Below, one piece after another: positions 239-56,700 of a DNA stretch of 64,000 nucleotides. The stretch is from Massalongia carnosa (Eukaryota), in the NCBI GenBank assembly GCA_965645245.1, contig OZ287067.1, positions 2,604,001-2,668,000 on the forward strand, read 5' to 3'. The notes below the pieces were generated by a model. The model was not told where the DNA came from. It saw nothing but the letters and a program-made list of their open reading frames with translations, and made no database searches. Numbering within the stretch: the stretch's first letter is position 1; each line of letters begins with the position of its first letter. The translations under genes and the position numbers were made by a program.

Positions 239-799
239 GAAGGGAGTGAGGCAATGAAAGTTGATGACGGAGTTGTGTATCAACGGTAGCGGATTGGTGA
301 GTCGGAATACGAGTACTAACGTTAGCTTTGGTTTAAATGCTTGGCAGTCGCTTTATGAAATTATTTGTTAACAGCTAAAACCTTCATCTTCGACACTTCA
401 GCAAAAAATACCTGGGGCAGCTATCTGAATCGTCTCTCCAACGTACAGTTTAATATCACTAGACTCCACGAAATCAAAGCACCCATATTTCTCAGGCCGC
501 CCTACAGGCAGATGTTGAAAAATTATACAGGGCGTTACAATATTCGAATACGCATTGCTGATACGCAGCATCCATAGCGCATTGATCTCCTTTGCTTGTC
601 GTCCTATGGACAGGTATATGAAGATATCGGATTCTTCGTCTCAATCTTTACGCCGGTGAGACGCAGGACCCATTCCACGTGAGCATAATGCGGGCCGGCA
701 CGCATCCAATGTTGGTATTTACACAACGAGGGCTATTCTCCTCCTTCAACAAATATAGAAATACACATCCTTATTCCGAAGACAATTCTTCTGTTGCTT

Positions 800-1636: not shown

Positions 1637-2201
1637 TGTTATAGCTAACACACTATGTATTCAAGGACGAACGGAACGGTGATGCCGATGAGGGCAAATA
1701 TCGAAGGAAGGATGAGAATATATGCGTAGGTCTGCATTGAAGTTAATGATTATGTAAATCCTTCGTCATGCTAACTGACAAGCACGGAAGATTTAAAGAC
1801 ATAAAGGGCAAGGCGTCACGGCGCGGAACTATAAAGATGCCGATGCGACTTCCGATGTACTCCGGTGCTTGTATTCGATCTCCACGTCGAACTATTCCAC
1901 CCCCAAGATCGAATAAGAAGCTTTTCAAGATGTTCGCTTGTAGTTGTGGGGTGGGAAGAGAGAGTAAAAAGAAAGAACGCCTCTGTATGACGTCAGATCT
2001 CGATCCAAGGCGCTCGGAGTTCTTCGGACAGAATCTTGCCTGGCTAACCCTCCTTCGCTTTGTTCGCATCCTGTCGTTGATTTTTGAGTAGTGTTTGGTG
2101 TTCTTCCACTTCACAAAGTGGTAATGGTGTGTCTGCTTGATTAAGTCAAGGCTGAGACAAAGAATTTGCTCCAGGAAGCCTAGGGAACCCAGGTCTCAAA
2201 G

Positions 2202-3901
2202 ATGTCATCGCTCGTCAAGAAACTGTTCATTGACAAGAAGCGGGAGATAGTCCTGTTCTCCTCCACGGCAATTGCTCTCTATGGCTATGATCAAGGCATG
2301 ATGTCTTTGATCAACACGAACTACGACTACCTGAACACAATGGGCATCAGCAAAGAAGATCCCCTTGTTGGGGTAATTGTCTCAGTGTACTACCTAGGTT
2401 GCGCCGTGGGCTCAGTGCTCGCAAGCTTGTTAGCTGACAAACGAGGGCGGAAACCAAGCATCTTTGCGTGTTTAGCTGTGACGGCGGTCGGAAATCTGCT
2501 GATGTTCATCTCTGGCATGGGTTTCGAAAAGGGCGCCATGGCACTCATGTTCGTAGGGAGGGTTGTCATGGGCCTGGGAGTGGGCGGCATCGATTCAGTC
2601 ATACCGGTATATTCTTCCGAACTAAGCTCAGATGGCGGCCGGGGAAAAGCCCTAGCACAAGAGTTTCAATCGAACATTTTCGGCCTCGTAATGGCATTTG
2701 GCTTGAATCTTGTAGTGACCAAGACTCTTGGAAAAGGGAATCAGTGGGGTGGGTGTTCCGGTCTAGTGTTGCTCGTTCCGTCGAAAGCTGACCCCGTAAA
2801 AAAGCATGGAGGATCCCAATAATAGCCATGCAGATTTACCCGGTTTTGCTACTAAGCTTCATATATCGCCTCCCTGAAACACCGCGATGGTTCATATTCA
2901 ATGACCGGCGTGACGACGCCCATGACGCTTTGACTGACATCTACGGTGACGACGCGACAGAAAAGTTTGACCAGCTGGTGCAGGCGCACCAGGACGAAGC
3001 CAGCCATGCCATTGGCTACAATGACATGATCTGGCCTTCCGGCAGCCAATTCCACCAGACGGTCGTAACGGTCATGGGCCAGGTCAATCAAGCGTTGACA
3101 GGTTATGGGGCAGTCAGTGTCTATGGCCCGCAAATCTTTCAGCTGCTTGGCTTCGACGTCAGCGACTCAGAATATTTAACGCTGGGAAACTACATCTCCT
3201 ATTTTTTTCTCATGACTCTTGCTTGGCTGCTCATCGATCGCGTTGGCCGACGTATTCTCATGGTCGGCGGGGCCTTTGCCATCGCAGCCTGCTTCCTCAT
3301 CCTCACTATCCTGGGCGGTCTTGCAATGAACTCGGACCGCTTTAAGATTCCTAATTTAGCCGTTGCGATACCGGGTAGCGTGATACTGTACATTGCAACA
3401 GGTGCGTTTGGGGTTGGCTGGTTAGCCGAGCCCTGGCTTATCCCAACGGAGATATTCCCTTCTACTTCGCGTGCTCAAGGGGCTGCCATCTCTGTTGTGA
3501 TCTGGGGTTTAGCCAATTTCGCCGTTACGCTGCTCACCCCGATCCTTTTTAACGAAATCAGATACTGGCTCTTCCTCGTCTTCGTGGTCACAAACCTGTT
3601 CGCCGGCTGGTGGACTTGGGTGCGGTTTTACTATTCCCTTCTTCACTTTTTGCCCTAAGGCTTTGGCTCACAACTGCTAATTATGAATTCTCAGGCATAC
3701 TCCCCCGAAACTGGCGGCCGCTCGTTTGAAGAAAACCAGGCTTTCTTTGAAGACGCCAAGGATCACTCTACCTGGCGCGTGCAAAGGGTCAATAAGGGCG
3801 AATTCCGACACATGCCGGGCAGCGAGAAGAGTAGTTCAGGCGATGGGGGAGAGGGAAATGGCGAGTCGGCACCTTTACTGGGAGGGGCTGATAGGTCATA
3901 A
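2202..3901 (+). CDS. MFS sugar porter family transporter (3 exons; introns 2749-2804, 3620-3694)
   Basis: Motifs YGYDQG, DKRGRK, PVYSSE, PETPRW, DRVGRR, EIFP..R and PETGGRS; the GT-AG introns with CTGAC/CTAAT branch sites restore one frame. Confidence 0.92.
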
Positions 3902-5694
3902 ACTTCTTGACAGCGGCGCAGCGCTTTTGTCACGAGGCAGGGGGGGTCTAGTCAGGGAAAAAGCAGCCCGTACTTCGCCACCAAGCAGCCAATTCCTTCC
4001 CTTCCCTATTCATTCGCGCACCATAGCTCTGATTCCCAACCAAAATTTTCTATGTCAGCAACTCAAAACATCCACATCATCAGCTTACATGCTGCTTTCT
4101 TGAATGTCGACTTCCGTTAGCCTGATGTCTGCATCTTCTTCTTTCTCTCCTCTCCCTCTTTCTTTCCCTCCAAAAACGCACTTGTCGCCCATTAATTTCC
4201 TTTCTTCTTGCATACAATCATCAATGCCCTTCCCCCATTTCCACCGTGGCACACCCAAACATATCATAGCGAATACCTTGAGAAAGAAAACGCATTTCCA
4301 AAAGAAAGTCAAACTGCTCTCCTACCGCTTGATGTACTTGGCATCTATAGCAATCAGACGACCACGGCTCCTAGTCAACATATAACTCCCAAACAATGCC
4401 CCATCTACCTTCGAAATCCTATGCGGTGCATTTGCAAAAGTCGAAAAGGTTATCGATGCGAGTATGGGCTACCTGTAAGCCAGGAAAGATATCTACAAAA
4501 TCTATCGGCAGGAAAATAAACCCATAGAGAAGGAAGCAGCAGAAAAACCATCTGCAGGGTCAGATACGTCATGAGATTCGCATCAGGAGAAGAAACCAAT
4601 ATGTAAGCATGGTTTTGGTGCTTTGCCGAGATTTCGGCCCCAATCATGCGAAAGCTACACATCGTGCTATGTAACAAGCGGACTTTAGAGACAAGCTTAC
4701 GTACGCCTCTTCTGGTGATGCCATACTTTTCTCTCGGAAATCCGGGAGATCCGCAAGAAGACAATCCCATGAACGTGAAAAAGAGAGAGACATTCGATCT
4801 TCTTTTTCGGGTTCTCAAAGAGTCCCCAGATTACCCACGCCCGCGCAGCGTGACGCATCGAGATCCTGAAGCCAGCGAACAAGCTCGCTGAGCCTCACTG
4901 TCCTTTCATCATCTAAGCTCGCCAACTCAAGTCTTACGAACGGAGCGAAAAGATGCTAGCTTGAGAGCTTTTTTTTGTTAGGACACTTCCCTATAGCGCG
5001 CGTGAAGTTCATTCCGACTTATAACAGAAGCCTTCCGTGGACCTATGATCGGCCGGTGTCGCTGTATTGCAGTATTATGCGTACGGCCATCTCCAAGGGC
5101 GCTCGAGGAGAGACGCGGAGAGCATGATGGGGCGTCCAAGGATGAAAGGGTGAGGCCACTCTTGGTGTCGGCGTATTTCTGGTTATGCAAACGACTTGAA
5201 ATCAGATCGCTTGATAGATCTTCTCACAATCGAAATGCTGAAGATCGATCCCGAGAGACTCCCTCCGAGCGAGTGTCTGAAGAAAGGCACTTGCATCCTT
5301 GGGGGAGAAGAACGACGCGCTAGCATTATTTGCCTGCATACATTAGGTATCTAGGTATATGGAGAGAGTGTAAGGGGGTCACGTGCTACTTGGGGATGGT
5401 AGATGGTATGGGTAGGTATATACCTAGATATTATGCCAAATAGGCGCCATTGAATGAGAAAGCGTTGGAAATAAGTAGTAATTAGCTATAGATTCCGAAA
5501 CAGGTGATCGACAAATCTATAGAGCCAAAAAAAAACTCCCCCGGATAGCCAGCTGTGGCCCCAAATCGAGGAACCGAGCGAACTTATGCATCACATGAAG
5601 TATATTGTACAGTCCCACTGCCCACTTACACTCCCCCCCGGTTCTGGTTGGTGGTAAAAAGAGAGAGAGATTTATGACTTATTACTTCGATACA

Positions 5695-6773
5695 TCATGA
5701 TGTATTTGAAACAGAATTAAAGCGGTGCGAACCAAGCGGATGGTCCGAGTCCATGGTTGGGACCACAACGCTGTTCCCACCCACACCTTGTACGCTGGCA
5801 GCGGAAGTGGACTCCCGATCCGAGCCCGGCCGGGTCGTCGGTACCACTGTAGCGCCCTCCTGGCGCGTGTCTCCTAGGCTGGTGTCGCCTTCCGTATTCC
5901 GGTGGCCGCCGTTCACGTACACGGGCGCCACAATGGTGTCACCCTGGCGCATGCCCTGGACGTGGCCGCCTTGGTGGTCATAGCCGTCATTCGATTCAAT
6001 GGTCGGGACAACGACGGCGTCGCCCGGGGGAGGGTTCGTGGTGCGGCTGTCCGTTGTGGAGTATCCGGGCGAGGGGATGACGGGGACTACGACCGCGTTT
6101 GGATCTTGGCTTTTGGGCCCGTTGCCCGTGCTTTGGTCATCGGTTTGCTGAGAGGTGGTGGGGGCGTAACTGGTATCGGTTGAAGCGCGGGAGGACTCGT
6201 CTTCTATGCAGCATTGAACGGTGTCGTCGCCTATGCAATAGCCCCTATTGTTTGATCAGTCTAATTGGCATTTCGATACGGCGGTAAGGGTACGTACGGG
6301 ACGAATTTGCCTTTGCCGTGGCCGCATTGTTCCTTCTTGTATGTGTTCAGGCAGGAAAATCTTCCATATGATTGAGCGTTTTCGCCAGCGGTGCATTGTG
6401 CCACTACGCAACATTGAACGCTGGCATCTGGAAAAATTGCATCAATATTCTGGTCCCGGTTCGGGGTGGGACAAACGGAGACAAGCATGATCGAGTGTCA
6501 AAAGAAACAGTAGGTGGGAGATCGAGATGAGTATCTTACCTGGTCCGTATTTCCAGAAAGAAACTGCACCAGGGCAATCATCTGTTTTTGTGACTGTACC
6601 GGGATGCTGAGAAGAATTGATTAGTATATTCTCCGCTGAGATCAAAACAGACGTACACCATCAAAGTCGCATTCTTCGCCAACAGAAGGGATGTTTCTTG
6701 CTTCAATCGGAGGCAAGGCGTAGACGAGAACGCCTGCGGAAAGCACCAAGTAAAGTAGAACAGATGATCTCAT
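5695..6773 (-). CDS. Secreted Cys-rich protein, about 287 aa (exons 6773-6657, 6606-6540, 6427-6298, 6244-5695)
   Basis: Signal peptide MRSSVLLYLVLSAGVLVYA; three GT-AG introns give a continuous 864-nt frame; two ..VQCC modules followed by an S/T/G/P-rich tail with repeated VVP motifs. Confidence 0.8.
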
Positions 6774-7079
6774 TGGTGCCGCTGCAATTGAATAAAAGAT
6801 GAAATGTCAGAGATTCGGGAGTACTTTAGGCTGATGATTTCATTCAGGAATAACAACGGTATAAGTAGTACAGAATAAGAATTGCAAGCGGTATGATGAT
6901 GAATGAGAAAAACGACTCAAGTTTCAACGCGAACAACCGTTCCTTATATCTCTTGCTTGAATCTGCCTCGTCTTCTAGGAAAAGCGGTTTGAGAGATTTT
7001 GACTTGCAGCACAAGCTCAAACCCCAAGACATGGAAGATCTCTGGGCATCCAGAAGACGGGATTGTTGGGCTAGAAACG

Positions 7080-7760
7080 TCCGGCGAGATCTGTGCTTCT
7101 CAACGAGCTATTGATGGTTGACAGACGGGAAGAGTTCTTGGTGAAACATTGGAGGCCACCACGTACGAGCCACTTGTGAGGCTTTCGGACAAGAAACGTT
7201 ACCTATTTATTTGGCCGCGTTTCACCAGACGATTGCGGGAAGACGTCGGCCATTGTTTTTTTGAAGGTTAATTATTGACCCTTGAAAAAAGGCAAGAGTC
7301 AATGATGACGATAGACGATGAACGTACGACGAAGAGGTTCATTCATCGAGGTCGCTAGGTAAAGAAGCTGAGTTGAAAACGGATCCTTTGCTGCACTTGC
7401 TTGCCGCTAAGATCTTTCGGCCCTTTCTTACTAACTACATTAAGCCGTTTGCGCTGGAAAGTGCCTTGTAGGGCTCTGGCTTTGCCGTGTTAAAGAATCC
7501 TCATCCACCAGGGACAATCAAACAGTGTTCCATTCTGTTCATTCGCTTTCACGTTTTTATATCTACAACGATGCCACTGCATTTGATAGACGACGAAGGA
7601 ACGGTCGATGTGAGGAAACCCTCAAGGTCATCCTCACGTTTTCCCAAACGGCCCGCTTGCCAAGTCTACCAAGTATCTCCTGTTTCATCCATGCCGTTTT
7701 GGAGAAATGGGAACTCCTTACTCCCCTGTTGATCCTTCGCTTCAGTGTACCTTAAAGAAC
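7080..7760 (+). mobile_element. Possible highly degenerate Ty3/Gypsy integrase remnant
   Basis: Fragment TYEPLV...FIWPRFTRRLREDVGHC resembles the integrase Zn-binding region (WPxxxRxLRxYxxHC); broken by stops, no LTRs seen. Confidence 0.3.
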
Positions 7761-8562
7761 ATTACGGGAAGCGAAAACAAGCCCGTTATTGGGGCACAAA
7801 AGGCCGATTCCCTGTCAGGCTTCAGCTGACACTTCATTGGCCCGCTCATGGATGAACACTTCTGAATTCTGGAGTAGCTGATTCATGGTGCTGCTTGGGC
7901 CACATGAGATTATGCCCTTGCTCCACTTACGCCTATGATCTTTTCACGACTCTTGTATTCTTAACAGCGTACGTTTGTGACTACATTTCGAATTTCTTGA
8001 TTACATCTGCATCATGCACGTGCGTTTTATACGCGTCGATCGATTGCTATATATTTTACACCAGCAATCAAAGGTGTGAGGAGGAATGTCTCTAATCATC
8101 TTGAGTATTGATAAAATGCTGTAAAGGATCCAAACTGACGGAACATGAATAAAATTGTTTTCAGCCGGCCAGATACGATGTAGTTCTTTTCTTGTATACT
8201 ACCAGGCGCTCATTAGTTCGTCTCTCAAATCTGCTGGGGCCAGTCTATCTTCAACAAACCTAGGAATACCGCGAAAGCTTTTGATGGATGAAGATTTTAA
8301 GAGCGAATTGACGAGATTAACGCCCTTAACAGCAACGGAATGTCCTAAAAGGGCAAAAGAGGATGGACCCAGTCATAAGACGAGAAAATCTACTCACCTG
8401 CAAAGAAAACCTCTGTGTAGCGCATGCTTATTTAACAAATACTCTCTGATATTCTTAATCTAGCCGTCTAAGAATATATAGGAAAAGGATTAGCGATTCC
8501 AGATAGGTCATGGATGTAACCCTGTTTACAAAACTCCTTGCTTTGCAACTACCTGGAGTCGC

Positions 8563-9853
8563 CTGGGTAGTTTATGTTAGCCGATTGCTGACTATGAGAA
8601 GCTTTAACTGAGTAATTTTAATTTTTGCACATCTATCATTCTCTATGTTTGTGCCAACAATCTGCCTAATTTCCACAAAAGCTCGAGATCCGTAAAAGAA
8701 AGATTCTTACGCCGTGAATTTTTCTTGACAGCTTCCTGGTTTCCTATTTATCCTTTCAATGCTTGTTACTCACCTGTCACTTATTGCCATATCAACTCAA
8801 TTTCATTCCCGTCTTTGGCTTAGTGCGTAGGCACTAAATTCGGCTTCTTTTCACTTTCATGATGGACGCTCAGTCCGAGGAAATCAACCGGTGGGTCTAC
8901 TACATAGATTCTTGTTAGGAAGTAGATGGACAGCTCTTGGAGGCTATTCAGGGGTAGCCACTTCCCCTTTCGCGATTTTTCTTCTTTTTCACTTTTTCGG
9001 TTTTTCCCAACTTGAGTTATCTTAGTGAGAAAGCAGTCGGGGTCGCAGCAGTAACTATTGCAGATCGCGGGCTCCCGCATCAAAGCGGATGTAAACGCTC
9101 AGAATCCGCAATGCGGCAGATGAGCAACTTGGGTGATGGTGGGGGCACTTCGTGTTGTCGTTGGTTAGCTAGCTAAATTGTCGGTAAAGGCGAGGCCGAG
9201 TTGGCGGTTTGGAAGGGGCGGGCTACGGAGCCTTCGGTGAAAGCGATGAGAGGAGTGGTTGTTATCAGTACGAGTGGTTGATGATGGGGCGAATTTATCC
9301 GTGCTGGCCAGAGTGGGACTTGATAGGTCAAGGGAAGCGGGACGGAGAGGCTACACACAAGCACTAGTTAGCAACTAGGAGGATGAGAAGTAGATAGATT
9401 GAACATATTTGACCATGCTTCGTCGTGATGAGGATCCTACGAACCAGAACCGAACCCAGAAAAAACCCCCTCAAAAAACAGGCCGCTCTAAACACATTCA
9501 TAGCAACGTCCATACATATCTCCACCCCCACTTAGGCCACGCAGATACCTCGCCCCGCTACCGGAAATCAGGTAGAGAAAGGGATTATTTGGGGGTTTTT
9601 TGGACTGGTAGGTAAGTAAGTATGTATGTAGATAGATACCTACATAGCACGTACTGGCTCTGTGAGGGTGGGGGTTTGGCTTTTTTCAAGGGAGACGTTG
9701 AGGAAGAAGAAAGTATACTGTATAGATATGTAGGAGGAATGTTGTAGTTTTCTGATCGTGGATCCGGGGGGGGCTCTTTCTCTAGTTGGAGTTCCTGGTA
9801 GGGCAAAGCTGCTGGGGGGGACAGGTTAAGTAAAAAGTTGATCCGGGGCATAC
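8563..9853 (-). other. Putative multi-intron transcript with no clear long ORF
   Basis: Same-strand donor/branch/acceptor sets: 9654-9558 (GTACGT..CTGAT..TAG), 9444-9351 (GTTCGT..GCTAAC..TAG), 8773-8563 (GTGAGT..GCTAAC..CAG); weaker 9853-9812 and 9548-9488. Confidence 0.4.
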
Positions 9854-10000
9854 CTTGTAGATTTTGGTTTTTGCGTGAGGATGGTTGTTGGAGGGTTTCA
9901 GGTTATTGAATTTGCGGAAAGGGGGTTTCATTTTATTTTTTTTACGATTCTAATGTTTTTTTGGTGGGTTTTTTCTATTATTTCTATTTAATTTGTTGAG

Positions 10001-10033
10001 ATCATGAGGATATCCCCATGATATCCTCATGAT
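10001..10033. repeat. Perfect 14-bp inverted repeat with 5-nt loop
   Basis: ATCATGAGGATATC-CCCAT-GATATCCTCATGAT. Confidence 0.9.
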
Positions 10034-10603
10034 GTTTGTTGTCGTATGCATGCAGACATAAAATTATGCAGCCAGCTCGGCGCACATAGAAGTTGCTTGG
10101 CGCAACTAGAATGTGCCGGGAGTTCATGATTTTAATCTTTTAAGTTTTAGCGCTGGTGCAAAAGGGGATGTGATGCAAATAGGGGTAAACACGGGTAGGA
10201 TCCGCTGAGTCAATCGGAGCTCGCGGGGCTGGCATTCCGATGCATCTGAAGTACTGGCGCAGCCCGAAATTTTTGAAGGTTTTATTTAGTTCTAACTATC
10301 TTTTTCTTGAAGTAAGCACCATGATTTGGTTCCACATATGTTTATTTTATGCTCTTGGGAGCCAGCCAAATCCAGTTGAGCATAAGAACATTGTGGGTCA
10401 TTCAAATAATTGAAACCAAATCATGCTTGGTTTCATCTTTTGTTTTAAGTACAAGTGAGTTTGGATGGATGAACGCGGAGGGTTGAAGTTGACTCAAGGG
10501 TTCGCGCTTTGGATTGTTGACCGACTGCATAACAAAAGTCCTCTTCTCCTTGCAAAGTCTTTTCATCAAATCTTGTCACTAATGGAGACAACACGGCGGA
10601 AAC

Positions 10604-11781
10604 TTATTTTGAATGCAAAAGCGAGTTTTTGAATAATGAATCCATGTACCTCTCGGTTTGTATCTCACTAAAGTCCCTTGTGAAACGAACAGTCAATATT
10701 TCATTAAAGGTTTTCAGTTGTTCTTTAAGTTGTCTAAGCCGAGATATAAATGCTGCAACCTCTTCACCTCCAGACATTCCCTTAAAAACACCCCGAATTT
10801 GACAGTGGAGAATCTCTGAGTGTTTGCTTGATCCTCGTCTCCATACTGTAGGAGACCATGTATGAATCAGCATGCCGTGCTGGCTGGTCTTAATAATCTT
10901 GCACAGTATTGGCAAAATAATTTCTTCAAATCTCATCACCGAGAGAGATGCCCTCCCAAGTAACATAATCTCCATAAGGACGGCCGAACCGATTACATCA
11001 GTGTGGCATATCCTCTCAGCCCTCCTTATCACTATCGGTAACAGCATGATCATTTTAGTCCAGAGCTGGTTTTTATAATACTCACAGGATTCTGCCAGTT
11101 GTAAAGCCTTGAATACCTGTGTTGTACGCAGCTCATCTTTGTTCAACTCCTGGATTCTCGGCTCCGATACATGGAGCAGTAAAGTTGGCTAAGCAGATCT
11201 TTGGGCTGCCGTTGGTGAGTTTGTGCTAGCCTTATCGACGGGAGGAGGGGTTTCCATGCGCTCTTGTGATTGTATTTCTACCACTCTAGCTTCCTCTGAC
11301 TGCTCTGCACTTTTCTCTGTTCCGATGTCATTCTAAAATCCCTTCCTACTGATTGCTCTCCATATTCCTCCCGTTCAATTTCATCCATAAGGCCTCTCTC
11401 CCTGAATTCCTTCACAAAATCTGTTATGACATCCTTATGCTTTCGGATGATAGAACTGGAAAACCTATCCCGAACCAGCTCCTCTCGGAATTCCTTCCAA
11501 ACCGCCTTGTGTTCCTGTACAACCGATTCAAGAGCTTAAATAACCTTCCCACATCCTCCAGCCGAGCTTTGAAGTTCCTTCCGGTAGCTATGTTTGCAGT
11601 AGCATAGGAGGTTTTCAGGGTCGGATAAGATTTCCTCGAGACGATGGAGGACAAGATGGAGGCTTGTGAACTCCTGGGTAAGCTCGTTGTGCTCGCCACA
11701 TGCCTTCTTGGAATTTTGCACAATTTTCCATACAGATTTGGTAAGAAGTACTGCGTCGCTAGGAGAGAAGCTGAAAGACAT
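10604..11781 (-). pseudogene. Disrupted gene with fungal STAND/NACHT-type (HeLo-like) N-terminal domain
   Basis: MSFSFSPSDAVLLTKSVWKIVQNSKKACGEHNELTQEFTSLHLVLHRL, then an in-frame TAA at 11536-11538; protein-like reading continues (AVWKEFREEL..FSSSIIRKHK) with further stops. The 3' limit is uncertain. Confidence 0.6.
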
Positions 11782-12133
11782 GTTGATTCGCTCAACTGTT
11801 GGTCTGCTGTAATATTTCCCAATCAGACAGCGTTGGCATTAACTTAACTTAGATACTTGCTATGCGGATCAAGTAACGATAGCGATTAGGCTAAAATACC
11901 TTCTGAGGTCTTTAAGTCTTGCACAAGGCTAAGGCTAAGGCTGACCATCTACAGAGCAGCGAAGAAAGTGATATCATAATATAGAACAATATCTATTAAT
12001 GTAAGACGACAGACCCCTCTCTACTTCTTCTAAATGCTTTCATACTCATCATCAAAGTTGTTTAGTCTTTTTTCGCATGCCTTTATCTTTCCATCCATCT
12101 TCCCTTCTACTGCCAGACCCCCTTGTTCCACCT

Positions 12134-13666
12134 CTAGTACCACGGGCGCCAGCGTCCCACATAGCGGCAAAGAATGATATTTCTTTCGTGCAAGAAGCCA
12201 GCCCATGTATCTCTACTATTGATTCGCCAATTGCGCGTGAATGGCACCGAGGAAACGATGAGTTTCCATTTGACACCTGGAGCCTCGGGGTGAGAGAGGA
12301 AAGAAAGTAGCGAGGAGAGCTGAGCGGACCCCAACATAGTCTTATCAGGAGAATTTGCAGGACGCGATTTAGTGGGAGAGCGGTATCGGCGGGTGTCCAG
12401 CAGAAAGAAAGAAGCGGGGCCATGAGCAAAACTTGAATAGGAAGAGGAATTTCCTGCAGGCGGAGGATTGACTGATTCGTGGTAGAGATCCCATGGCTCA
12501 ATTGCAGCTGGATAGGGATCCTCGAGGCCTTAATCCTAGTCGTTGGCAATATCATGATCGTCGATAACATGAATCCAGGGAAGAGACTCGGAGACCGCGG
12601 AAATTCAGGGGATGCATAGACTTGTCGATACTGTTGGCGGTAAGAATCTACATTGAAACCGAATCTTCAAGGCATGTCAATATAAATGAAATCGTCAAGG
12701 AATAGCATAAATGATGCATGAAGGGAAGGAATCCATTTTGCTAGATGCCAAAAGCCAGGAACTGAAAGAGGGTGGGAAAGCGGATGGTATGGAAAGTTGG
12801 CCTTGATACAACTGGACGTAAGGTTAGTTTTCCCGTACCTGATGGGTTCTCCCTAGAGCAGGGGGTAGTGACGAAGAATCCTGAATGATTATTTGACAAG
12901 CTGTACTGATATCTACTTGCAGGACGAAGCTTTAATATGGTTACTGAAGATGTAGAGTCGGTATCATTTGGTAGCCAATATACTTGCCCCGCAAATTTCC
13001 AGGTATTGGTAGGCTCTTCTGCTTCTGGCGTGTCCCTGTATGAGATGTAAATGGGTAATCGGGAAGCATTGGGCTCTCGTTTTAAAAGATGCCGGCGGCA
13101 TTATCAGAAACGTAGCCCACCCGAGCAAATGAAAGATCTTGACTTTTATAGTACAGTGGAACGCGATATACCATATCGGCGGCAAGTAAGGCAAGACTAT
13201 CATTGAGTGCTACCGCAAGAATGCTCCATAAATAAGATGTCGAGGATGGGATGCCTAGTAATAGCGCACGGGCTATCTCAACGCGCCCACCTTGGGCTAT
13301 CCCCAGTTGGCCAGCTCCATTTTGCCTGCTGGGGTACTTCCACGTCTCACCCTTCCACGTCTCACCAATATCCGTTGAGCTTCCTTGTCTGATCCTGACG
13401 CTGGGCTTTATTCCTCCAGTCTTCTCCTTACTTTCTCGCGACTGATTCGCCAACCGCCAGGCAAGAGTGAAGAAGCTTACATACACCAATGCCGAAGTAA
13501 ATATTAATGGTGGTAGGTGATGACCTGGTATCTAAACCAGATAGGTCAGCTTCCTTCCGTTGGCTTACATATGGAGGATTCTAATCACCCATCTGAGAAA
13601 CACGTAGGCAAAAAAACGCATTCCGAAGCAGCTCGAAACGGTCCCAATATCAAGGTAGGTAAGCAT
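12134..13666 (-). pseudogene. PhoD-family alkaline phosphatase pseudogene
   Basis: Across frames: AYVFLRW/IPGHH, DLSFARVGYVS, REP, TSSCIKANFPY, FMLFLDDFIYID, LPWIHVIDDHDIAND*, FFLLDTRRYRS, KTMLG, SSVPF, DTWAGF. Stops at 13082, 12667, 12536 and 12530, several frameshifts, intron 13532-13588. Confidence 0.85.
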
Positions 13667-31868: not shown

Positions 31869-32555
31869 ACGCCCCCCTTCCCATAAGAAAACACACATAC
31901 CTCAAGAAATACGCCCTCGCCCTCCTCATCCTCTTCTCCACCCTCTTCACCACCTCCAAGCTTATCACATTCGGGCTGAACACCTTCACCCACATCTCCA
32001 CGCCCGTCGTCATCAATCTGCCGCGCAGCAGCACCGCCGTATCGGTCCCCCGCCGCCGCACGCTAAGACATACGCCCGCGAACGGATCGCCGGTCTTGAA
32101 CGTGGCGAGGAGGACGTCCCCCGTGCGGGGCGTGTCCGGGTTGTTGCGCGCGAACAAGCGCGTGCGGGTGCCTGTCGGGTCGAGGGTGGCGAGATGCGCG
32201 GTTTGGGCCAAGGCGAGGGGGGTGGAGAATTGCGCGCGGGCGGAAGGGGGAGGGGGGTAGGTCTTGATTTTCGGTTGGGGGGAGGCTGGGGAGAGAGAGA
32301 GAAGGGAAAGGGGGGGGGTTAGGTTGGATGGATGGATGGATAAGGGTACATGGAATGGGGGAGGGAAAGGGAGGGAAGGGGGGGGAGAAGGGGAGGCGAA
32401 CCTTTCTTATCTGAGAAAGAGGAGAAGAAAGGGTTGTGGGGGGGAGATGATGGTTTTTGGTGGGTGGAGAGGGCGGAGTAGAGGCATCGAGCAGGCGATT
32501 GGAAACAAGAGGATCGAAAGTGAGGATGTTTCCAGCAGCTCAGAAGAGGGCGCAT
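31568..32555 (-). CDS. IMG1: Mitochondrial ribosomal protein bL19m (multi-exon)
   Basis: Motifs GDVLLATFKTGDPFAGVCLSVRRRG..LLR..GVEMWVKVFSP and RRARAYFLR/KPKHDRGSVEN; presequence-like N-terminus. Confidence 0.88.
31837..31866 (+). repeat. (GA)n microsatellite in an IMG1 intron
   Basis: Run of about 15 GA units. Confidence 0.9.
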
Positions 32556-32823
32556 GGTGGGGAGGTGTGAAAGCTAAATAGGTAGTCGAAAAGATTGAAG
32601 AGAGGGAAGGTTTTAGTTTCGGAGCTATTCGTCTCGCTAGAATATTTTTCCGAGAGCGCTCTTCCCTGTACTACTCCGTAAGTTTAACTACTCTCTAGCT
32701 TTCAACAAACGACACATTTGTTCAATCCCCCATCTCTCTCTTGTCCCTAGAGAAGGGGGTCATACACACCTCCTTCAGCAACTTCAATTAATCTACGAAC
32801 TCGGTTCAATCGTTCAACCAACC

Positions 32824-34118
32824 ATGTCCCCTCTCCGTCCTCCTCTCCTGTCGTCGTCGTCGTCCTCACTTCCCCGTCTCCAGCTCCAATTCTACAACCT
32901 CCGCGCGCTACAGCCGCAACAAACAGCAACACGCACCATAACCACAACTCCGTCCCGAAGAAAAGGTTCCTTCCCCCCCCCCCCCACCCAAAAGAAAGAA
33001 AAAGAAAGAAAAGACAAGCTAACCCAATCCAACCTCCCCTCCCTCCCCCAACAGGCGGTCCCCTCCCAACCATCCTCCCCACTCAATCTACGCCCCTCAA
33101 CGACCTCCTCAACACCTTCCGGACCAACATCTTCCTGCCCGCGCACCTCCACAAGTCCCAACGCGACCTCATCTACCGGCGCAAACACCAACACCTGCTC
33201 ACAGGCGACGAGCCCGCGACGGCCTCGATCGCGGGCGAAATTGTGCAAATGCGCCCGTTGGACCGGCTGCGCGACGAGCCCGCTACGGACCCGTCGATCG
33301 CGCGCGTCCTACAGCTGATGCGGGAGACGGGCCATTGGGGCAATTTGCCGGGGTTTTTGGCCGGGCTGCAGACGGCGCGGAGGAAGCCCAAGGGATGGCA
33401 GATGGAGCGGGTGGCGCGGAAGGCGTGTTTAGTGGGCAAGGAGGGGTTGGTGGTGCAGTGCGTGCGGTCGGCGGAGATAACGGGACTGGGGCTGTGGGAG
33501 GTGGGGGTCGTGAGGGAGTTGATGTGGGCGGCGATGCGGCGGGCGCAGGCCGGAGCATGGCGGAGGAATGCGGTGGAGCGGGGCTTGCGGTTCGCAGAGA
33601 TGGTCTGGGTGTTGCTGCAGGATCCCAAGCAGGCCGTTCCCCAGGGGTCCGGGCTCGTGAATCCAAGGGGCAGGTCGGAAGTGGTCGGGGTGCTGTTGCA
33701 GCTGCATGCGGCCATGGCGATCGTCACGCAGGGCGGGACGGAGGGGGTCAAAGTGCAGGATGAAGGGAAAAGGGTGGGCAAGTACGTGCGATTGCTACTA
33801 GCGTCATGGGACAATGCGAGACTGGGAGTCACGGAGAAAGGGGACGACCACGAGGCGAATCGACAGTTGATGAGGTGGGCGCCGGTCTGGCACGGCATGA
33901 AGCTGGCGCGAGAGGTGCTGGGCAAGGACTCATCGCTGGGGCGCGAGCTCACAGTCAAGTTGTGTCAAGTGGAGCCAGTCTTGCAGAAAGCGCAGGAGAG
34001 GGTATTATTGGCGCAGACCGCACCGGCCACGCCGGCGGATCTGGCTCATCAGGAAGAGGGCATTCGCCGCGGCGTGAAGGTGTACGACGATCTATCTGCA
34101 GCTACCGTCTCTTCGTAG
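32824..34118 (+). CDS. Hypothetical protein, probably mitochondrial (one intron at about 32966-33053)
   Basis: Arg/Ser/Leu-rich presequence-like N-terminus; the spliced frame LNDLLNTFRTNIFLPAHL..QRDLIYR continues into the 291-aa ORF; head-to-head with IMG1. Confidence 0.75.
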
Positions 34119-50863: not shown

Positions 50864-52607
50864 AAGTGCACAGTCTGTCTTAAGTATCACTCGAACCAGG
50901 TCCAGCTACCAGACTGCTGTGATCTCGATGATATTCGGGTCGCGCCATCTTCCTAAAACCCCTTGGGCTAGGATTTTTATGACTTGCCGGAATGTCTTCT
51001 GCTGCGTTGTTCAGTTTTGATGATGATGTATTCATACTCCGATATGTCACCGGCCGTAGGCCGGCCCATGCAGGCAAAGCTATCTAAGTTATGTTACATG
51101 GAAACCCTTTTTCAGGTGTAAAAACCATATCCCTTGATACCTGTCCGATGTGACACCGGGTCGACGTCGGACAGGAGACGCAGAGCGAAAATTATGTGAG
51201 AACTGTGACGCCTTGTGAGATAAGGAAAAGATAAGTGAAACTACTGTTAATTGTACAATAGTGTAGATGCCAGTGAGAATTGGGTCAGTAGACCTGTTTT
51301 CATTAGCCAAGTAGTTAATATCTTTAGAGTTTTTGATGTTTCGGTCAGCTGTTGATAGTTGTTCGTGCCAGCGGCGCGAAACATCTGTTCTCTATTGTCA
51401 ATAAGTCTACAGAACATAATTACGTGTTCTGGAGTTTGTCTGTGCCAGCCACATGGGCAGGCCGGTGAGGTGACGGCGGGGACCCGTCGCTGGTAGAGGA
51501 AGTCAGCTAGACCGATCTTACCGGTGCGGATCTGTGTTGTCAGGGCGCTTTCTGCCTTTTTTAGCAGCGTGTGTATTTTCAGTCCTTTTTTGCTCAGTGG
51601 GACTGATTGCGCTATGGAGGGTTCGGTGACGCGATTTTGATATGCGCGTTCAGTTTTGTATTGGTGGATTTTATGCTTATAAAATTTTACGAAGATCGGA
51701 TAAACAAGGCAAGCATGGATTACTGCAGGGCCAGCTCCATTGCATCTTTCTCATCGAATAAAGGAAGAAAAATTGGAGTTGTTGAAGTACGATGGAATAA
51801 AATCACGGATGGAAAAATCGAAATGCTGAAGCAGTGGAGAGGCGATCGAGCAATATGGCTACTTCATTTTCTGCCCACTCGGTGTCCTATCTACTGTAAA
51901 TACCCCCAAGAAAATATCTATCTGCCAACCGAGATCTCTGTCCGCATCATGAAGATATGCGGCTACTACTCTTAGAGTTTCCTAAGACTAGTCTTCAGTA
52001 GAGAAATAGAAGCTGCGAATCTGGTTTCCACATCTTATTGGCTTTAGCATCAAGATCACATCAGATGTTATAATCTTAAAAAGCTTAGTTCATTGTTTAA
52101 TGCATATTACTTCGCGCCTTACTGTTCACGGCTCGCTGGATTCTGAACGATACCCAACCTTTTTATAAATGCCTTCAAGGGCTCTATCAGCAATAGAAAC
52201 TAACCACAAGGGCAATGCCCAAAGTATATGCCGTAGAGCTAATGACATAGATTCACAGTCTTAGCTGCCACAACACAAGCATTACAGGGCAAGCCTTTGG
52301 TGCTCGATCAATACATTGGAACGTGACTCTTTGGATCTTTAGCTAGAGAATGGTCCGAGACTTGATGGCGCCTAAAATAGGGCGTAATCGCATAGAGGCA
52401 GAACATCCCATATCTTGGCTTATATCGAAATTTAGGCCGGCTGCAGCAGATGTGTAAAAACATAATATACCATTTCGACTATCGGTAAGGCGCAACTATC
52501 TCAGAACAATCGATTTCAAGGTAAGAAGCTCTTTCGCTGCAATATCAATATGGAAGAAATATCCCTTAATTGCAGCGGAAGCGATTGAGAAACAAGATAT
52601 GTAGCGA

Positions 52608-52640
<33 letters not shown>

Positions 52641-52968
52641 TCATTAAGCGTATGCATCCTTAGGATATGACGCTGCGACTGCTATTTATGTACATAAACA
52701 ACAGTCAGGAAGTGGAAACCTGGCCCCCAGGGTAAAACCACTCCCTTTTATTCCATATTGAATGCAACGAGATCGTTCTTCTACCACGCGGTGCATACAC
52801 CCAGATCTTCAAGCGCTAGGAATCCTATAGACCCGATGAACTAGACAGTGTATCTCCACACGTTCGACGAACATTCTCTCTCTTTAACCGTTTTGACTCA
52901 ATAGATGATAGACTGGCCATGATTGATCGAGGGCAGATCGTGGTGTCGTATAAATGAAGATGTGAAAA

Positions 52969-53177
52969 TGTGGCCATTCCGAATGAATGGGCTTTTTCGA
53001 TGAGGTGAGAGGCTTCCGCCTGGGGGGTGTGGCCATTCCGACTGAATAGACTTTTTCGATGAGGTGAAAGGCTTCCGCCTGGGGGGTGTGGCCATTTCGA
53101 CTAAATGGGCTTTTTCGATGAGACTTTTTCGATGAGGTGAAAGGATTCCGCCTGAGGGTGTGGAATGAATGGGCTTT
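52969..53177. repeat. About 3.3 copies of a 59-nt tandem repeat inside the retroelement
   Basis: Units start at 52969, 53028, 53087 and (partial) 53159: TGTGGCCATTCCGA.TGAAT.G.CTTTTTCGATGAGGTGA.AGGCTTCCGCCTGGGGGG. Confidence 0.92.
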
Positions 53178-53258
53178 GTATGCCTTCGAAGTGGTGAATG
53201 ATCAGTAGAGACGTTGATCATTCAAACGGCCACCGAGGTGGGCTTCAGCGTTGGCGAT

Positions 53259-53330
53259 GATCAGATATTGGCCACCTCCGAGGAGGTGTTGATAGCCTGC
53301 ACCACGTAGAGGTTTCTGACCTAGCAGGCC
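53259..53330 (-). ncRNA. HDV-like self-cleaving ribozyme
   Basis: P1 GGCCUGC/GCAGGCU (G1-U37 wobble); P2 GGUCAGAA/U(A)UCUGAUC; P3 ACC/GGU; L3 UCUACGU; single-pair P1.1 U-A; CAA strand; P4 CACCUC/GAGGUG; J4/2 GCCAA with putative catalytic C at 53271. Confidence 0.82.
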
Positions 53331-53729
53331 GATATGTAGCGATCCCAGGGTAAGATAAGTAGGAAATAATTAAAGGCTTTAGGCTTGCTATTAAGTGTCA
53401 CTTACAGCTGCTAAAACCTTTTAGAATGCTCAGATATATAACACTCTTAGAACTATATGAGACATAGTGTCTTTCATTCTAAATACTCTGGCTTTGAAAA
53501 AGATATAGGAATAAGGTTGTGGCACAAATCTAATCAAGCTAGCTAACGTTAGCTGCCGCTGTCATATTTAGTTCTGGCATAATTTTATGTTAGTGGCTGT
53601 GCTAATTAGTAGTTAACTTCACGTACCCTCGGATACCTGTCCGCCAGCCAAGGGGCAAACTCGATAAGCCAAGTTAGGGAGATCTTTGAAATCCACGGCC
53701 TCAGCTACCGTTTCAAATTACCATGCACA

Positions 53730-56700
53730 ATGGAGGATCTTACAGGCTTGGACTGGACGGTCTCACACCTAACCCCCAAAGTGCAGAAGCCTCCACCCAT
53801 GAACCCAACATCCTACTATTCTAGCCTACGGCCTACTCCTCCTCTCTCAGGGAGATCAACGCCCTCTGCCGCTGAGACTTCTGGGTACGCTTTTAAACCT
53901 CCGCCAAAACCAGCTTCAAGAAGTAATAGTTCAACGCCTGCAAACGATAGCTTCGCCAACCTGGTTACCTTCAATACTCCTCAGTCTAGCGCCAACGGCT
54001 CCTCGTTGAAGAACGTGTCTTTGCATGATCAGCAAAAAAAAATCCTGGAGAAGAGGGAAAGAGAACAAACTTTACGGAACAAACAGCTTGCGCCAGTTTT
54101 TGGTCACTCAGATGGAGATTTCTTGGAAAGCCTAGGCAGTGGAAGGAGGACCCCCAACAGAATTACTACTCCGCCAACTTACACTGGTACAGACGAGTAC
54201 GGAGGGCAGAAGCTGTCGAGTGCAATCAACAAGCCATTTATTAGCATTGGAAAAGCATCACGTCATCCGGATAGTAAAGCTTATAAAAATAGCGAAGTCG
54301 ACCTCCTCTCGGTCTTTGACTCACCTTCACCGGCTCAAAAATTGAACAGGTTAAGTACGGACAAACTTAGTTCCAGCAACGGCTATGGCATAGACATCAA
54401 TGGAGGGTTTCCTGGAGATTTGGCTTCCTCGGAGCCTTTACATAAATCAGACGGAGCAAGTAGAGGTCCTACTTTGGCTCTAGATGATGATCCGTTTGGG
54501 TTGGGCACCACGGAAACCAAAACTGCAGATAGAACTGAAATCGCGGCCCAATCTATCGATGATGATGATATCTTAGGTCTTTTGGGACGGCCAGTCTCAG
54601 ATTTCCCTGCGATACAAGAGGACAAAAAGTGTTCCGAGGAGCCTATTAATGTTGACATGTCCGATCAAATGGATCATGCAATGGCGGAATTGATAGATAT
54701 GGGATTCGGTCCGGAGAAGTCAAAAGAAGCTCTGGAAAGCACAGAATCAGGTACCAACGTACAAGCCGCCATTGGCTGGCTCCTAAGTCAAGCACACGAG
54801 GACGCAGTGAGGAAATCTAAGTCGTATAGGAAGCAAGAAACCAAGGATTTTGAACTCGAAGCAGGCCAGCCGAGAATGGCACCGCGAAGAACGAACCCAC
54901 GGAGAAGTCAAAGTTCTGGGAGCGACACTGTGAAACCAGCATGGCTGCAGAAGCAGAAACAGCAAAATGCAGATCAATGCCGCCAAGAAAGTAGATCTCC
55001 TGTGAATGGAGAGAAAGACCCCGGGAAGTACGCGGCCGAACTTGGTACCAATCTCTTCAAGACTGCAAACTCTCTTTGGAAGACAGGAACCAAGAAGCTG
55101 AACCAAGCTGTTTCAGAACTCAACTCTGATAGCGATTCCAGCCAGCCAAAGTGGATGAAAGATGTACAGTTCAGATCCGATAGTGGCAGACCAAGACTTC
55201 GAGACCCTCGAACAGAACTTTCAAGTGGGGATGAGGAGATATTTTCACAGCGGCCAGCAACAATCAGGCCGCCCAAAGTCACGGATGAGGCATTACTCCT
55301 GGAATCTAGTAATGCACGGCCACTGCGAAAGCCTACAAGACCAGGAAAGGTAGTAGCTAGCCCCTGGATATCAGGCTCTTCAAGCGACCAATCTCCTATA
55401 CTTACAAAGCCTTATGAGCAAGAAAAACCGCACCCAAAGGTTTTGCATCAGCCAAGAAATTTTGTTCAGAAAGCGAAGGTGACCAAGCAATCAGTTGAAG
55501 AGCAAGCATCCAATGCGTACATCAGCCCAGCCCGCCGGAAAAAGCCACCTCAAAAGCCTGCCCTGCATGAGCCGGATCTGCTCTTTGATACTGGGAACCA
55601 TATATCCGAACCTCGGCCGCAAGCTACGCAAACAAAATCGTCCATCCAACTAGACTTACATACCTCGCCTAAAACCTCTGCTCCAATCCGCACTTCACCT
55701 CCCACCCGAACCATCCCCCCAGTTACATCCTCCGCACTTCAAACATCAACCACAAAGCGCCAAGATGGGACATCGGCGTTCAAAAGAGGCGACTATGCTC
55801 TTGCTACAACCTTCTACAGCTCGGCTCTCTCCGCCCTCCCGCCTACACATCCCTTAACTATTGTGCTCCTCACCAATCGCTCACTCGCCCATCTCAAAAC
55901 AGGCGACCCGAAATCCTCGATTGTCGATTCCAAATCTGCGCTCTCTCTGATCGGCCCTTCTCGTGGTGCGCTCGAAACCATCGATCTTGGCGACGATGAA
56001 GGCGCTAAAGACATGCAAACCTTTTGGGCCAAAGCCATGACTCGTCAAGCTGAGGCTCTTGAGGAGCTTGAGCGATGGTCTGATGCTGCAACAATATGGA
56101 GAATATGCGTTGAAGCAGGTGTTGGCGGCGCAACAAGTATTGCGGGAAGAAATCGGTGCGAGAAAGCAATTGCGGGACCTGCTTCCCAACACTCCCGCAA
56201 ACCAAGGACCGCCGCACCAACATTACCCTCTCCAAAGCCTATTCCAAAATCCTCGGCGCTTGACGACCTCTCAGCATACCCTGCACGTTCATCAGCCTCA
56301 GTGAGTCTTTCTACCACTAGCTCGATAGAGGCGATCACGCGTCTTCGAAAAGCGAACGCTGCAGCTGAGAGGCTGGACGATGAGAAGTTCGCGCTCGCGG
56401 ACCAAGTAAGTGACCGGCTCACCCGGTGGCGAGCAGGAAAAGAGGGAAATCTGAGGGCGCTGCTGGCGAGTTTGGACACCGTGCTATGGGAGGGGGCGGG
56501 GTGGAAGAAGGTGGGGATGGGGGAGTTGATCGTGCCGGGAAAGGTCAAGGTTGTCTACATGCGAGGGATTGGGAAGGTGCATCCGGATAAGGTAATATTC
56601 CTCTCCTCTGGTCCCTTTTCCCCGAGCTTCGGGTGCTCTGGGACGGCCTCCGTCTACCGGACCTGGAAGCTTCAGGCTAATCACCCTGGATTTTAGCTAC

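Follow-up and report, generated by a model that had tools for sequence, protein, structure and literature searches.

In animals and trypanosomatids, HDV-like ribozymes trim the 5′ ends of the non-LTR retrotransposons R2, RTE, baggins and L1Tc/ingi and of the short elements that depend on them. Among the trypanosomatid elements, NARTc, RIME and SIDER are non-autonomous partners of L1Tc and ingi and have the 77-nt Pr77 HDV-like ribozyme in common (PMC4035085, PMC3383444, PMC3185411). According to these reports, they are short, dispersed and abundant non-LTR elements without a reverse transcriptase, which carry the ribozyme in their first ~77 nt, are cleaved just upstream of the element and are copied in trans by a LINE. 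The R2 SIDEs (short internally deleted elements) and R2/R1 hybrid SIDEs of Drosophila are also non-autonomous and join a 5′ HDV-like ribozyme to a LINE-type 3′ end, the hybrid being flanked by 14-bp target-site duplications (TSDs); they are rare, specific to rDNA sites, and match their R2/R1 parents at both ends (PMC3414825). In the SINE-like elements of Schistosoma, the RNA of a non-autonomous retroelement is defined by small self-cleaving ribozymes of the hammerhead type or by twister variants (PMC6765202, PMC8501958).

Here we describe an element of 721 nt on the minus strand, at positions 52610..53330 of the window (the whole 64,000-nucleotide stretch that was analysed), which is probably a full-length copy, recently inserted, of a non-LTR retroelement that is high-copy and non-autonomous; its own ribozyme would cut the 5′ end, and a LINE would copy the RNA in trans. 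It comes from a fungus that occurs in lichen metagenomes. Like NARTc, RIME and SIDER, the element is short, dispersed, abundant and without a reverse transcriptase, and it begins with an HDV-like ribozyme fold; cleavage just upstream of the element is predicted, and a LINE would mobilise the element in trans. It differs in its fungal host, in a body made of 59-nt tandem repeats and in that no sequence relationship was found. In the trypanosomatids, the head is also a promoter and the partner LINEs are L1Tc/ingi. In contrast to the Drosophila SIDEs, the fungal family is high-copy, has a poly(A) end and is spread across many large contigs, and no parent LINE was seen for it. The Schistosoma elements have ribozymes of another class and an animal host, and those with a hammerhead are described as transcribed by Pol III (PMC6765202). 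The first-pass annotation, made without a search, named no described fungal family of this architecture. For the host this appears to hold, as our literature search, with Ruminski 2011 and Webb 2009 outside its coverage, returned no fungal example of ribozyme-headed architecture; the architecture itself is that of trypanosomatid NARTc/RIME/SIDER and Drosophila R2 SIDEs, so that only the fungal host appears to be new.

The borders of the insertion are precise. The exact 14-mer GATATGTAGCGATC occurs twice in the window, at 52596..52609 on the 3′ side of the element and at 53331..53344 on its 5′ side, while two or more matches were found in 0 of 100 shuffles. The element ends in a pure A29 tail (52610-52638, read as a T-run on the forward strand; TRF period 1, 29 copies, 100% matches) preceded by AAT, so that an AATAAA spans the tail junction. 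Both the coordinates and the anatomy proposed previously, an insert of 721 nt lying between identical 14-mers and ending in A29 on the minus strand, were thereby confirmed. It had also been suggested that other isolates might carry the empty site, and one does: a 9620-nt contig of the public run X4 (record 15), which comes from a lichen metagenome and represents a related strain, joins 51800-52595 directly to 53331-54100 with one copy of the 14-mer and 12 base differences in the flanks. The filled junction is present with 0 differences in two independent runs (X1 record 7 and X3 record 14). The A29 tail, the 14-bp TSD and the precise empty allele in X4 are together the marks of target-primed reverse transcription. 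The element lies ~390 bp upstream of the start of a gene.

In order to place this copy within a family, contigs from four public runs (X1, X3, X4 and X5) were compared with the window; runs X6-X12, with 0.04-0.13 of words, were left out. Matching contigs numbered 1913 in X1, 397 in X3, 203 in X4 and 114 in X5, and 753 of the 1913 contigs in X1 were at least 99% alike. Summed contig depth, which is not the same as copy number, was 10^2-10^3 times higher in bins of the element than in the flanks in all four runs (108,419-645,677 vs 670-979 in X1, 27,252-174,761 vs 395-426 in X3 and 769-12,134 vs 28.4 in X4). With hundreds of variant contigs across four runs, this is a family and not a single copy.

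Copies of the family have a common 5′ end, as the first-pass annotation had expected of a ribozyme-processed element: many of them share the boundary at G1, beyond which the upstream sequence is unrelated. Among the loose ends listed, those at 53330/53331 amount to at least 13+5 contigs in X1, 12+7 in X3, 9+6 in X4 and 7+1 in X5, so that per run between at least 8 and at least 19 contigs stop at this point and then enter unrelated flanks, for which agreement with the consensus beyond 53330/53331 is only 0.40-0.50 among the loose ends listed. Since a further 200 loose-end rows and 19 variant rows lie outside those listed, and summed depth does not equal copy number, a minority of copies may have truncated or extended 5′ ends. 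The same junction can be seen in database proteins, since three ORF products (P0008, P0009 and P0017) read across the 5′ junctions of other copies, with differing upstream residues followed by an identical peptide from the codon xGG that corresponds to G1G2. ORF products derived from the element come from at least 8 different contigs of 1.7-3.8 Mb, sizes that point to a chromosome-scale assembly, and, like the metagenome contigs, place copies in different flanks, the dispersal expected of a non-LTR retroelement. Upstream of G1, at differing distances from it, P0008 and P0017 also have a motif of five residues in common, for which we have no explanation.

Downstream of the head, the element consists of a linker (53164..53258, minus strand) without Pfam or Rfam match, a VNTR-like body (52969..53163, minus strand) and a 3′ domain. 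The tandem repeats reported in the insert proved to be ~3.3 copies of a 59-nt unit, of which TRF recovers 2.6 copies at 91% matches (52969-53122), while self-BLAST adds one more, degenerate, copy that reaches 53163. Copies of the family differ in the length of this region (skips of 71, 108, 160, 182, 215 and 219), and at least 29 variant rows fall in the body of abundant copies. The 3′ domain (52639..52860, minus strand) is structured and is a candidate region for recognition by a reverse transcriptase: its 222 nt fold with an MFE of -76.5 kcal/mol, compared with -59.8 +/- 4.4 in shuffles (z=-3.76), and 0 of 200 shuffles were as stable. No variants were seen in 52639-52749 among the rows listed.

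The element does not encode the enzymes for its own transposition, as had been claimed: seven sense-strand fragments of at least 30 aa contain no reverse transcriptase or endonuclease domain in Pfam, since their sole match, to Tho2 (E=0.073), is below its cutoff. This absence, together with open frames that are unconserved among copies, places the family in the non-autonomous class. It is not a classical SINE, whose Pol III head would come from tRNA, 7SL or 5S, given that ARAGORN found 0 tRNA genes and that Rfam gave no tRNA, 5S or 7SL match at E up to 10. A LINE partner was found neither by protein search nor among the ORFs of the window, where Pfam identified no reverse transcriptase in 63 ORFs and only ordinary fungal genes. 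A phmmer search against 1.84 billion representatives returned no long protein with the N- or C-terminal peptides of the element; with P0002 as the query there were 11 proteins, none of them similar to reverse transcriptases, and Pfam assigns no family to the only long match, P0016 (3049 aa, E=7e-4). We also considered whether the tail could be the C-terminus of a LINE ORF2, and rejected this because a search for longer proteins with the 51-aa peptide of the tail frame gave only four (128-148 aa), all from other copies.

How such an element was first assembled is a question of origin only, and here the strongest alternative is that the family descends from a LINE by internal deletion, in the manner of NARTc or of an R2 SIDE, its head and tail being the ends of the parental UTRs, and did not arise as a composite SINE by capture of a ribozyme module. 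We regard this as possible, if somewhat doubtful. Short forms of the family join head to tail directly (52829 to 53211, 52846 to 53240 and 52853 to 53253), a pattern that deletion derivatives would show, and SIDEs are built by such deletion (PMC3414825, PMC4035085). However, the parent LINE was not seen, since protein searches found no long protein with the peptides of the element, and the body is a 59-nt tandem repeat in which there is no remnant of reverse transcriptase or endonuclease. In addition, four contigs of run X5 match only the 72-nt head and diverge exactly at 53259, and this would agree just as well with a ribozyme module that moves.

The head itself is the feature that probably sets the 5′ end. 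The proposal that the first base against the TSD is G1 of an HDV-like fold was borne out by all four helices and by a full-length Rfam match from base 1: nucleotides 1-72 (53330 down to 53259; 53259..53330, minus strand) make up a complete HDV-like double pseudoknot, with P1, P2, P3 and P4 of 7, 7, 3 and 6 bp, and cleavage is predicted 5′ of G 53330. Checked base by base, P1 (GGCCUGC/GCAGGCU) forms 7 of 7 pairs and is closed by G1.U37; the pseudoknot P2 (GGUCAGA/UCUGAUC), a helix that the Rfam models do not score, also forms 7 of 7 pairs, including one G.U. P3 (ACC/GGU, with L3 UCUACGU) abuts the 3′ strand of P1, P4 is CACCUC-CUCG-GAGGUG, and J4/2 (GCCAAUA) has a C at the catalytic position, followed by AA. 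In HDV the P1.1 mini-helix consists of two pairs between L3 and J1/4. In the fungal element the single canonical pair is U23-A38, with C22 facing U39 as a mismatch and AUCAA as J1/4; P1.1 is thus reduced, because one base is missing after P1.

Two Rfam families recognise this head, in both cases below the gathering threshold. RF02682 (HDV-F-prausnitzii) matches nucleotides 1-72 over model positions 1-74 at 31.4 bits (threshold 44), with E=0.002 in a 2-kb search and E=0.063 over the whole window, the best of 4227 families, and RF00094 (HDV_ribozyme) matches at 26.5 bits (threshold 50). The nested double-pseudoknot layout is that of both models; the P3/L3 segment CCUCUACGUGGUG of the RF02682 consensus is identical in the fungal element, and its J1/4 and J4/2 also contain the CAAC and GGC.AA, respectively, of the Rfam alignments, J4/2 being aligned to GGCuAA/GGCgAA. 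What sets it apart from these families, besides the scores, are the base missing after P1 and the context of a eukaryotic retroelement. A loose descriptor of the HDV fold had a single match over the two strands of the window, placing G1 at 53330, and 7 matches on 40 dinucleotide shuffles (0.175 per 128 kb), which implies a chance of ~1.4e-6 per position that a match should fall exactly on base 1. In its nested part the fold shows no unusual stability (z=-1.20 for the first 100 nt, with 17 of 200 shuffles folding as well). Two scans of metagenome contigs for exact 20-mers of ribozyme core segments gave 0 loci each.

No variants were seen in 53248-53330 among the rows listed for abundant copies. 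In the divergent relative P0017, for which base changes were read back from the protein, the peptide is unchanged over P1, P2, P3 and L3 and is altered in P4, where it is 2 codons shorter; the change from Leu to Pro at U37 would imply U to C, and so a G1-C pair.

A uniform 5′ end is not by itself proof of cleavage, because a single 77-nt stretch serves L1Tc/NARTc both as promoter and as ribozyme (PMC3383444, PMC4035085). The same family could in principle owe its uniform 5′ end to transcription initiating at base 1, from an internal promoter similar to Pr77 or by Pol III, with an HDV-like fold that is inactive or decayed. The Rfam scores below gathering, the weak P1.1 and the lack of significance of the nested fold are in keeping with this view, as is the trypanosomatid precedent, but we consider it unlikely. 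Four helices and the catalytic C are in place in a fold that starts from exactly base 1, against a chance of ~1e-6 per position, and the head is free of variants among the rows listed, whereas at least 29 such rows lie in the body. Furthermore, the element has no tRNA, 5S or 7SL head, and two TTTT runs in the sense orientation (element positions 363 and 594) argue weakly against transcription by Pol III.

We also considered that the family may encode a functional small protein, in the form of an ORF of 107-148 aa starting with MINVST, with the ribozyme serving translation as proposed for R2 and L1Tc. The copy in the window has an open frame of 107 codons through the repeats (52901..53221, minus strand), and other copies have frames of 128-148 codons. 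The same Met starts 7 of 10 database ORF products as well as the copy in the window, and HDV-like ribozymes have been proposed to act like an IRES (PMC6765202). Nevertheless, the frames of different copies start and end differently, with ends in three different frames and a fourth frame for the start of two copies, all three reading frames of the 59-nt repeat are used, no Pfam family matches and, beyond the family and its relatives, phmmer gave only low-complexity matches; we judge the frame to be non-functional and a role as a protein very improbable. That the locus resembles a mobile element only by chance or arose through misassembly, for which the sub-threshold Rfam scores and nothing more could be adduced, is scarcely credible in view of the filled junction without differences in X1 and X3, the empty site in a third run and the hundreds of variant contigs.

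If the element is, as we favour, a ribozyme-headed retroelement mobilised in trans, a copy would be transcribed within a longer Pol II transcript starting upstream, and the ribozyme would cut this read-through RNA just 5′ of G1, such that each RNA, and hence each new copy, would start at the same base. An autonomous LINE would then supply the reverse transcriptase and endonuclease, which would bind the structured 3′ domain, the poly(A) tail or both, and the RNA would be copied by target-primed reverse transcription at a staggered nick, which would give rise to the 14-bp TSD.

The broader reading, which we hold to be evenly balanced, is that this is the first fungal retroelement family in which an HDV-like ribozyme makes the RNA 5′ end, that it is active now or was so recently, with hundreds of copies in a lichen-associated fungus, and that the 72-nt ribozyme is a portable head of several families with different bodies; these would include P0017, the relatives P0011-P0013 and the X5 contigs that diverge at the 3′ end of the ribozyme. 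In that case 5′ processing by a ribozyme would be a strategy used generally by non-LTR elements that lack a promoter, fungi included. A fungal family of this kind would carry HDV-like 5′ trimming to a third eukaryotic lineage. Signs of mobility are that the insertion is polymorphic between strains, with a perfect TSD and a pure A29, and that many copies are at least 99% alike, and the family would be of use as a natural test system, present in high copy and apparently still mobile. Its 72-nt fold, with intact helices and a reduced P1.1, is a natural variant of use to ribozyme biochemistry. For lichen genomics, the family is an abundant repeat that breaks short-read assemblies and, as the element described here lies near a gene start, its members may affect nearby promoters.

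The element (52610-53330, minus strand) is best supported as a non-autonomous non-LTR retroelement. The anatomy described in the first-pass annotation, including its coordinates, was confirmed: read on the minus strand, GATCGCTACATATC is followed by a 721-nt insert, which starts with GGCCTGCTAGG and ends in AATGAAT and A29, and then by a second GATCGCTACATATC. These perfect target site duplications (TSDs; 52596-52609 and 53331-53344) are the only two exact plus-strand occurrences of the 14-mer in 64 kb, and none of 100 dinucleotide shuffles contained two matches. Tandem Repeats Finder reported the 29-base homopolymer at 52610-52638 and a 59-nt unit repeated 2.6 times (91% matches) at 52969-53122, as well as a small 14-nt repeat at 53110-53136. 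Self-BLAST of the window extended the repeat array to 53163 and found no second copy of the element within the 64 kb. In agreement with the proposed absence of reverse transcriptase and endonuclease, none of the seven sense-strand fragments of at least 30 aa in the element had a significant Pfam match, and a Pfam scan found no reverse transcriptase among the 63 ORFs of the window.

The first base of the insert, G1 at 53330, had been proposed to open an HDV-like ribozyme. A scan of 52000-54000 at permissive Rfam settings aligned minus-strand positions 53330-53259 with HDV-F-prausnitzii (RF02682) over its full length (model 1-74; 31.4 bits, E=0.002) and gave a second match, to HDV_ribozyme (RF00094, 26.5 bits); since both scores lie under the respective gathering scores of 44 and 50, the ribozyme head is not a member of either family by the gathering criterion. 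When the whole window was scanned with 4227 Rfam families, the RF02682 match ranked first (E=0.063) and was the sole HDV-type match. A base-by-base check verified the helices: P1 (GGCCUGC/GCAGGCU) has seven pairs with G1·U37 closing, P2 (GGUCAGA/UCUGAUC) also has seven, P3 is ACC/GGU with UCUACGU as L3, P4 is CACCUC-CUCG-GAGGUG, and J4/2 (GCCAAUA) has a C at the place of the HDV catalytic C, followed by AA. P2 forms a pseudoknot, which is beyond scoring by covariance models. The weak point of the fold is P1.1, which in HDV consists of two G-C pairs and for which J1/4 (AUCAA) permits one canonical pair only, U23-A38. The nested fold alone is unremarkable in stability (z=-1.20; 17 of 200 shuffles equally stable). 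A loose HDV descriptor (7-bp P1 from G, 3-bp P3, L3 of 6-8 nt, P4 of at least 4 bp, C..AA in J4/2, P2 of at least 6 bp) had a single match in the window when both strands were scanned, which puts G1 at 53330, the same base at which the Rfam match starts and which abuts the TSD. The descriptor matched seven times in 40 shuffled windows (0.175 per 128,000 positions), and the chance of a match whose start is the very base that follows the TSD is roughly 1.4e-6, an order of magnitude only, because the descriptor was written with the sequence already seen.

The window stretch is present in public sequencing runs of two organisms and in lichen metagenomes. Contigs of four runs were aligned to 51800-54100 at 80% likeness, giving 1913 contigs in X1, 397 in X3, 203 in X4 and 114 in X5. 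Summed contig depth in nine bins of the element was 108,419-645,677 in X1 (flanks 670-979), 27,252-174,761 in X3 (395-426), 769-12,134 in X4 (28.4) and 120-685 in X5 (0-4.4), sums which are not copy numbers and are read only as showing that the element exceeds its flanks by two to three orders of magnitude, bearing out the expectation of a multi-copy family. Among the ends listed, contigs came loose just past 53330 and 53331 in all four runs (13 and 5 in X1, 12 and 7 in X3, 9 and 6 in X4, 7 and 1 in X5), with overhangs of median length up to 255 letters and a consensus agreement of 0.40-0.50. This low agreement indicates that many copies end at one base and then run into unrelated DNA, as had been predicted for copies that share the GGCCTGC start but have different TSDs; a minority may have other 5' ends.

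An empty site was found in a related strain in X4, which lacks the element and has a single 14-mer copy. Record 15 of this run, a 9620-nt contig, joins 52595 to 53331 (51800-52595 correspond to its 183-978 and 53331-54100 to its 979-1731), its flanks differing at 12 bases and by one deletion of 17 nt. The X1 and X3 samples carry the insertion, since flank contigs (X1 record 7 and X3 record 14) enter the 5' end of the element by 29 nt with 0 differences; the insertion is thus polymorphic between strains. Likeness in X1 spreads from 753 of the 1913 contigs at 99% or more to 79 below 90%, so that young and old copies lie side by side. Inside the element are 29 of the 40 variants listed, all at 52750-53247, and none of the 40 lies within the ribozyme region (53248-53330) or within the 111 nt that precede the tail (52639-52749). 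Many joints among copies remove or swap parts of the repeat body, and in some the head is nearly fused to the tail (52829 joined to 53211, 52846 to 53240, 52853 to 53253). Four X5 contigs follow the 72-nt ribozyme head as far as its 3' edge, 53259, and depart from the element precisely there (agreement 0.6); they may represent other families, or an autonomous partner, with the same head.

The interpretation offered in the first-pass annotation was supported wherever it could be tested. The RNA of the element would be freed from a longer transcript by a cut 5' of G1, and the enzymes of a LINE would copy it at a staggered nick, producing the 14-bp duplication. The main rival explanation takes base 1 for a transcription start and the HDV-like fold to be inactive. 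Both readings of base 1 can hold, because a single 77-nt stretch of L1Tc is described as serving as promoter and ribozyme (PMC4035085).

The genes around the element are ordinary fungal ones, with Pfam matches to a Crb2/Rad9-type Tudor-BRCT protein, SAM decarboxylase, Hid1, a sugar transporter and mitochondrial ribosomal proteins. The element lies antisense to a plus-strand UBA-domain gene of 988 aa and has its 5' end some 400 bp upstream of the first ATG (53730) of that gene; a divergent promoter of this gene could be the source of read-through RNA. Elsewhere in the window, 32001-34000 has a GC content of 0.61 (window 0.49) and long open frames overlapping on both strands, for which no Pfam match was found.

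The 222 nt leading up to the tail have a predicted fold with two long hairpins at -76.5 kcal/mol (-59.8 ± 4.4 when shuffled; z=-3.76, none of 200 as stable). This stability, and the fact that none of the common variants listed lies in the last 111 nt, would fit a candidate protein-recognition domain, as in LINEs recognising their own 3' UTR. The tail is preceded by AAT, so that AATAAA spans the body/tail junction (52636-52645, minus strand) and could act as a polyadenylation signal. Transcription by Pol III seems unlikely, on the slight grounds that TTTT occurs twice in the sense strand, at 363 and 594 of the element, and that no tRNA, 5S or 7SL head was found in the element.

The open frame of the element was judged not to be a conserved gene, because frames differ among copies, the repeat is read in three frames and no Pfam family was found for the window frame or for its database matches. 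A protein database searched with the tail-frame peptide and, in a second round, with one of the matches yielded ten ORF products of 128-148 aa, nine on large contigs (eight different lengths, 1.7-3.8 Mb) and one on a short Logan contig, all of them translations of other element copies. Seven of the ten share their start Met with the window's 107-codon frame; the aligned products end in three different frames, P0008 and P0009 begin in the flank and cross the ribozyme in yet another, and the 59-nt repeat is translated in all three. On the minus strand, four extra bases that resemble a duplication of ATCA are present in the window copy at 52917-52924, near position 410 of the element. Many copies are without them, and the 4-base omission at 52920 predominates in X3, X4 and X5; the extra bases shift the frame, and in their absence the frame starting MINVST extends to the 128-148-aa ORF.

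In P0008, P0009 and P0017, unrelated residues give way to an xGG codon and then to the common peptide, so that G1G2 marks the limit of homology in three additional copies. P0017 is more distant (76% identity over the head), and its peptide is identical across P1, P2, P3 and L3, with P4 two codons shorter and a Leu to Pro change at the codon holding U37, implying G1-C; this pattern, read from protein and not DNA, is what a fold under constraint would be expected to give. The motif HLHSR occurs upstream of G1 in P0008, where it adjoins G1, and in P0017, 14 residues further off; a target repeat that is favoured for insertion, or nesting of insertions, may lie behind it. An exhaustive phmmer search with the protein P0002 found 11 proteins, with no RT-like or LINE-length relative among them. 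Remoter relatives among the 11 (P0011-P0013), in which the peptides of the repeat unit and the tail can still be recognised (56-66% identity), suggest that related families exist in this genome or elsewhere.

The architecture has already been published for other hosts. According to PMC4035085, NARTc, RIME and SIDER, the non-autonomous partners of L1Tc/ingi, have the Pr77 HDV-like ribozyme in common with these elements, and several cleave in vitro; according to PMC3414825, Drosophila R2 short internally deleted elements and R2/R1 hybrids combine the R2 ribozyme with a LINE 3' end, the hybrids having 14-bp TSDs. A 2019 review states that hammerhead or HDV-like ribozymes are used by certain LINEs and SINEs in a range of metazoans (PMC6765202). 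A full-text literature search (fungi, lichen, SINE), the scope of which did not extend to the primary surveys Webb 2009 and Ruminski 2011, found no report of a fungal retroelement with an HDV-like ribozyme. The suggested novelty therefore holds, as far as checked, for the host lineage, a fungus, and not for the architecture, which is known in trypanosomatids and Drosophila. The element is a clean, abundant and apparently active example, which would carry a known strategy into fungi rather than reveal a new principle.
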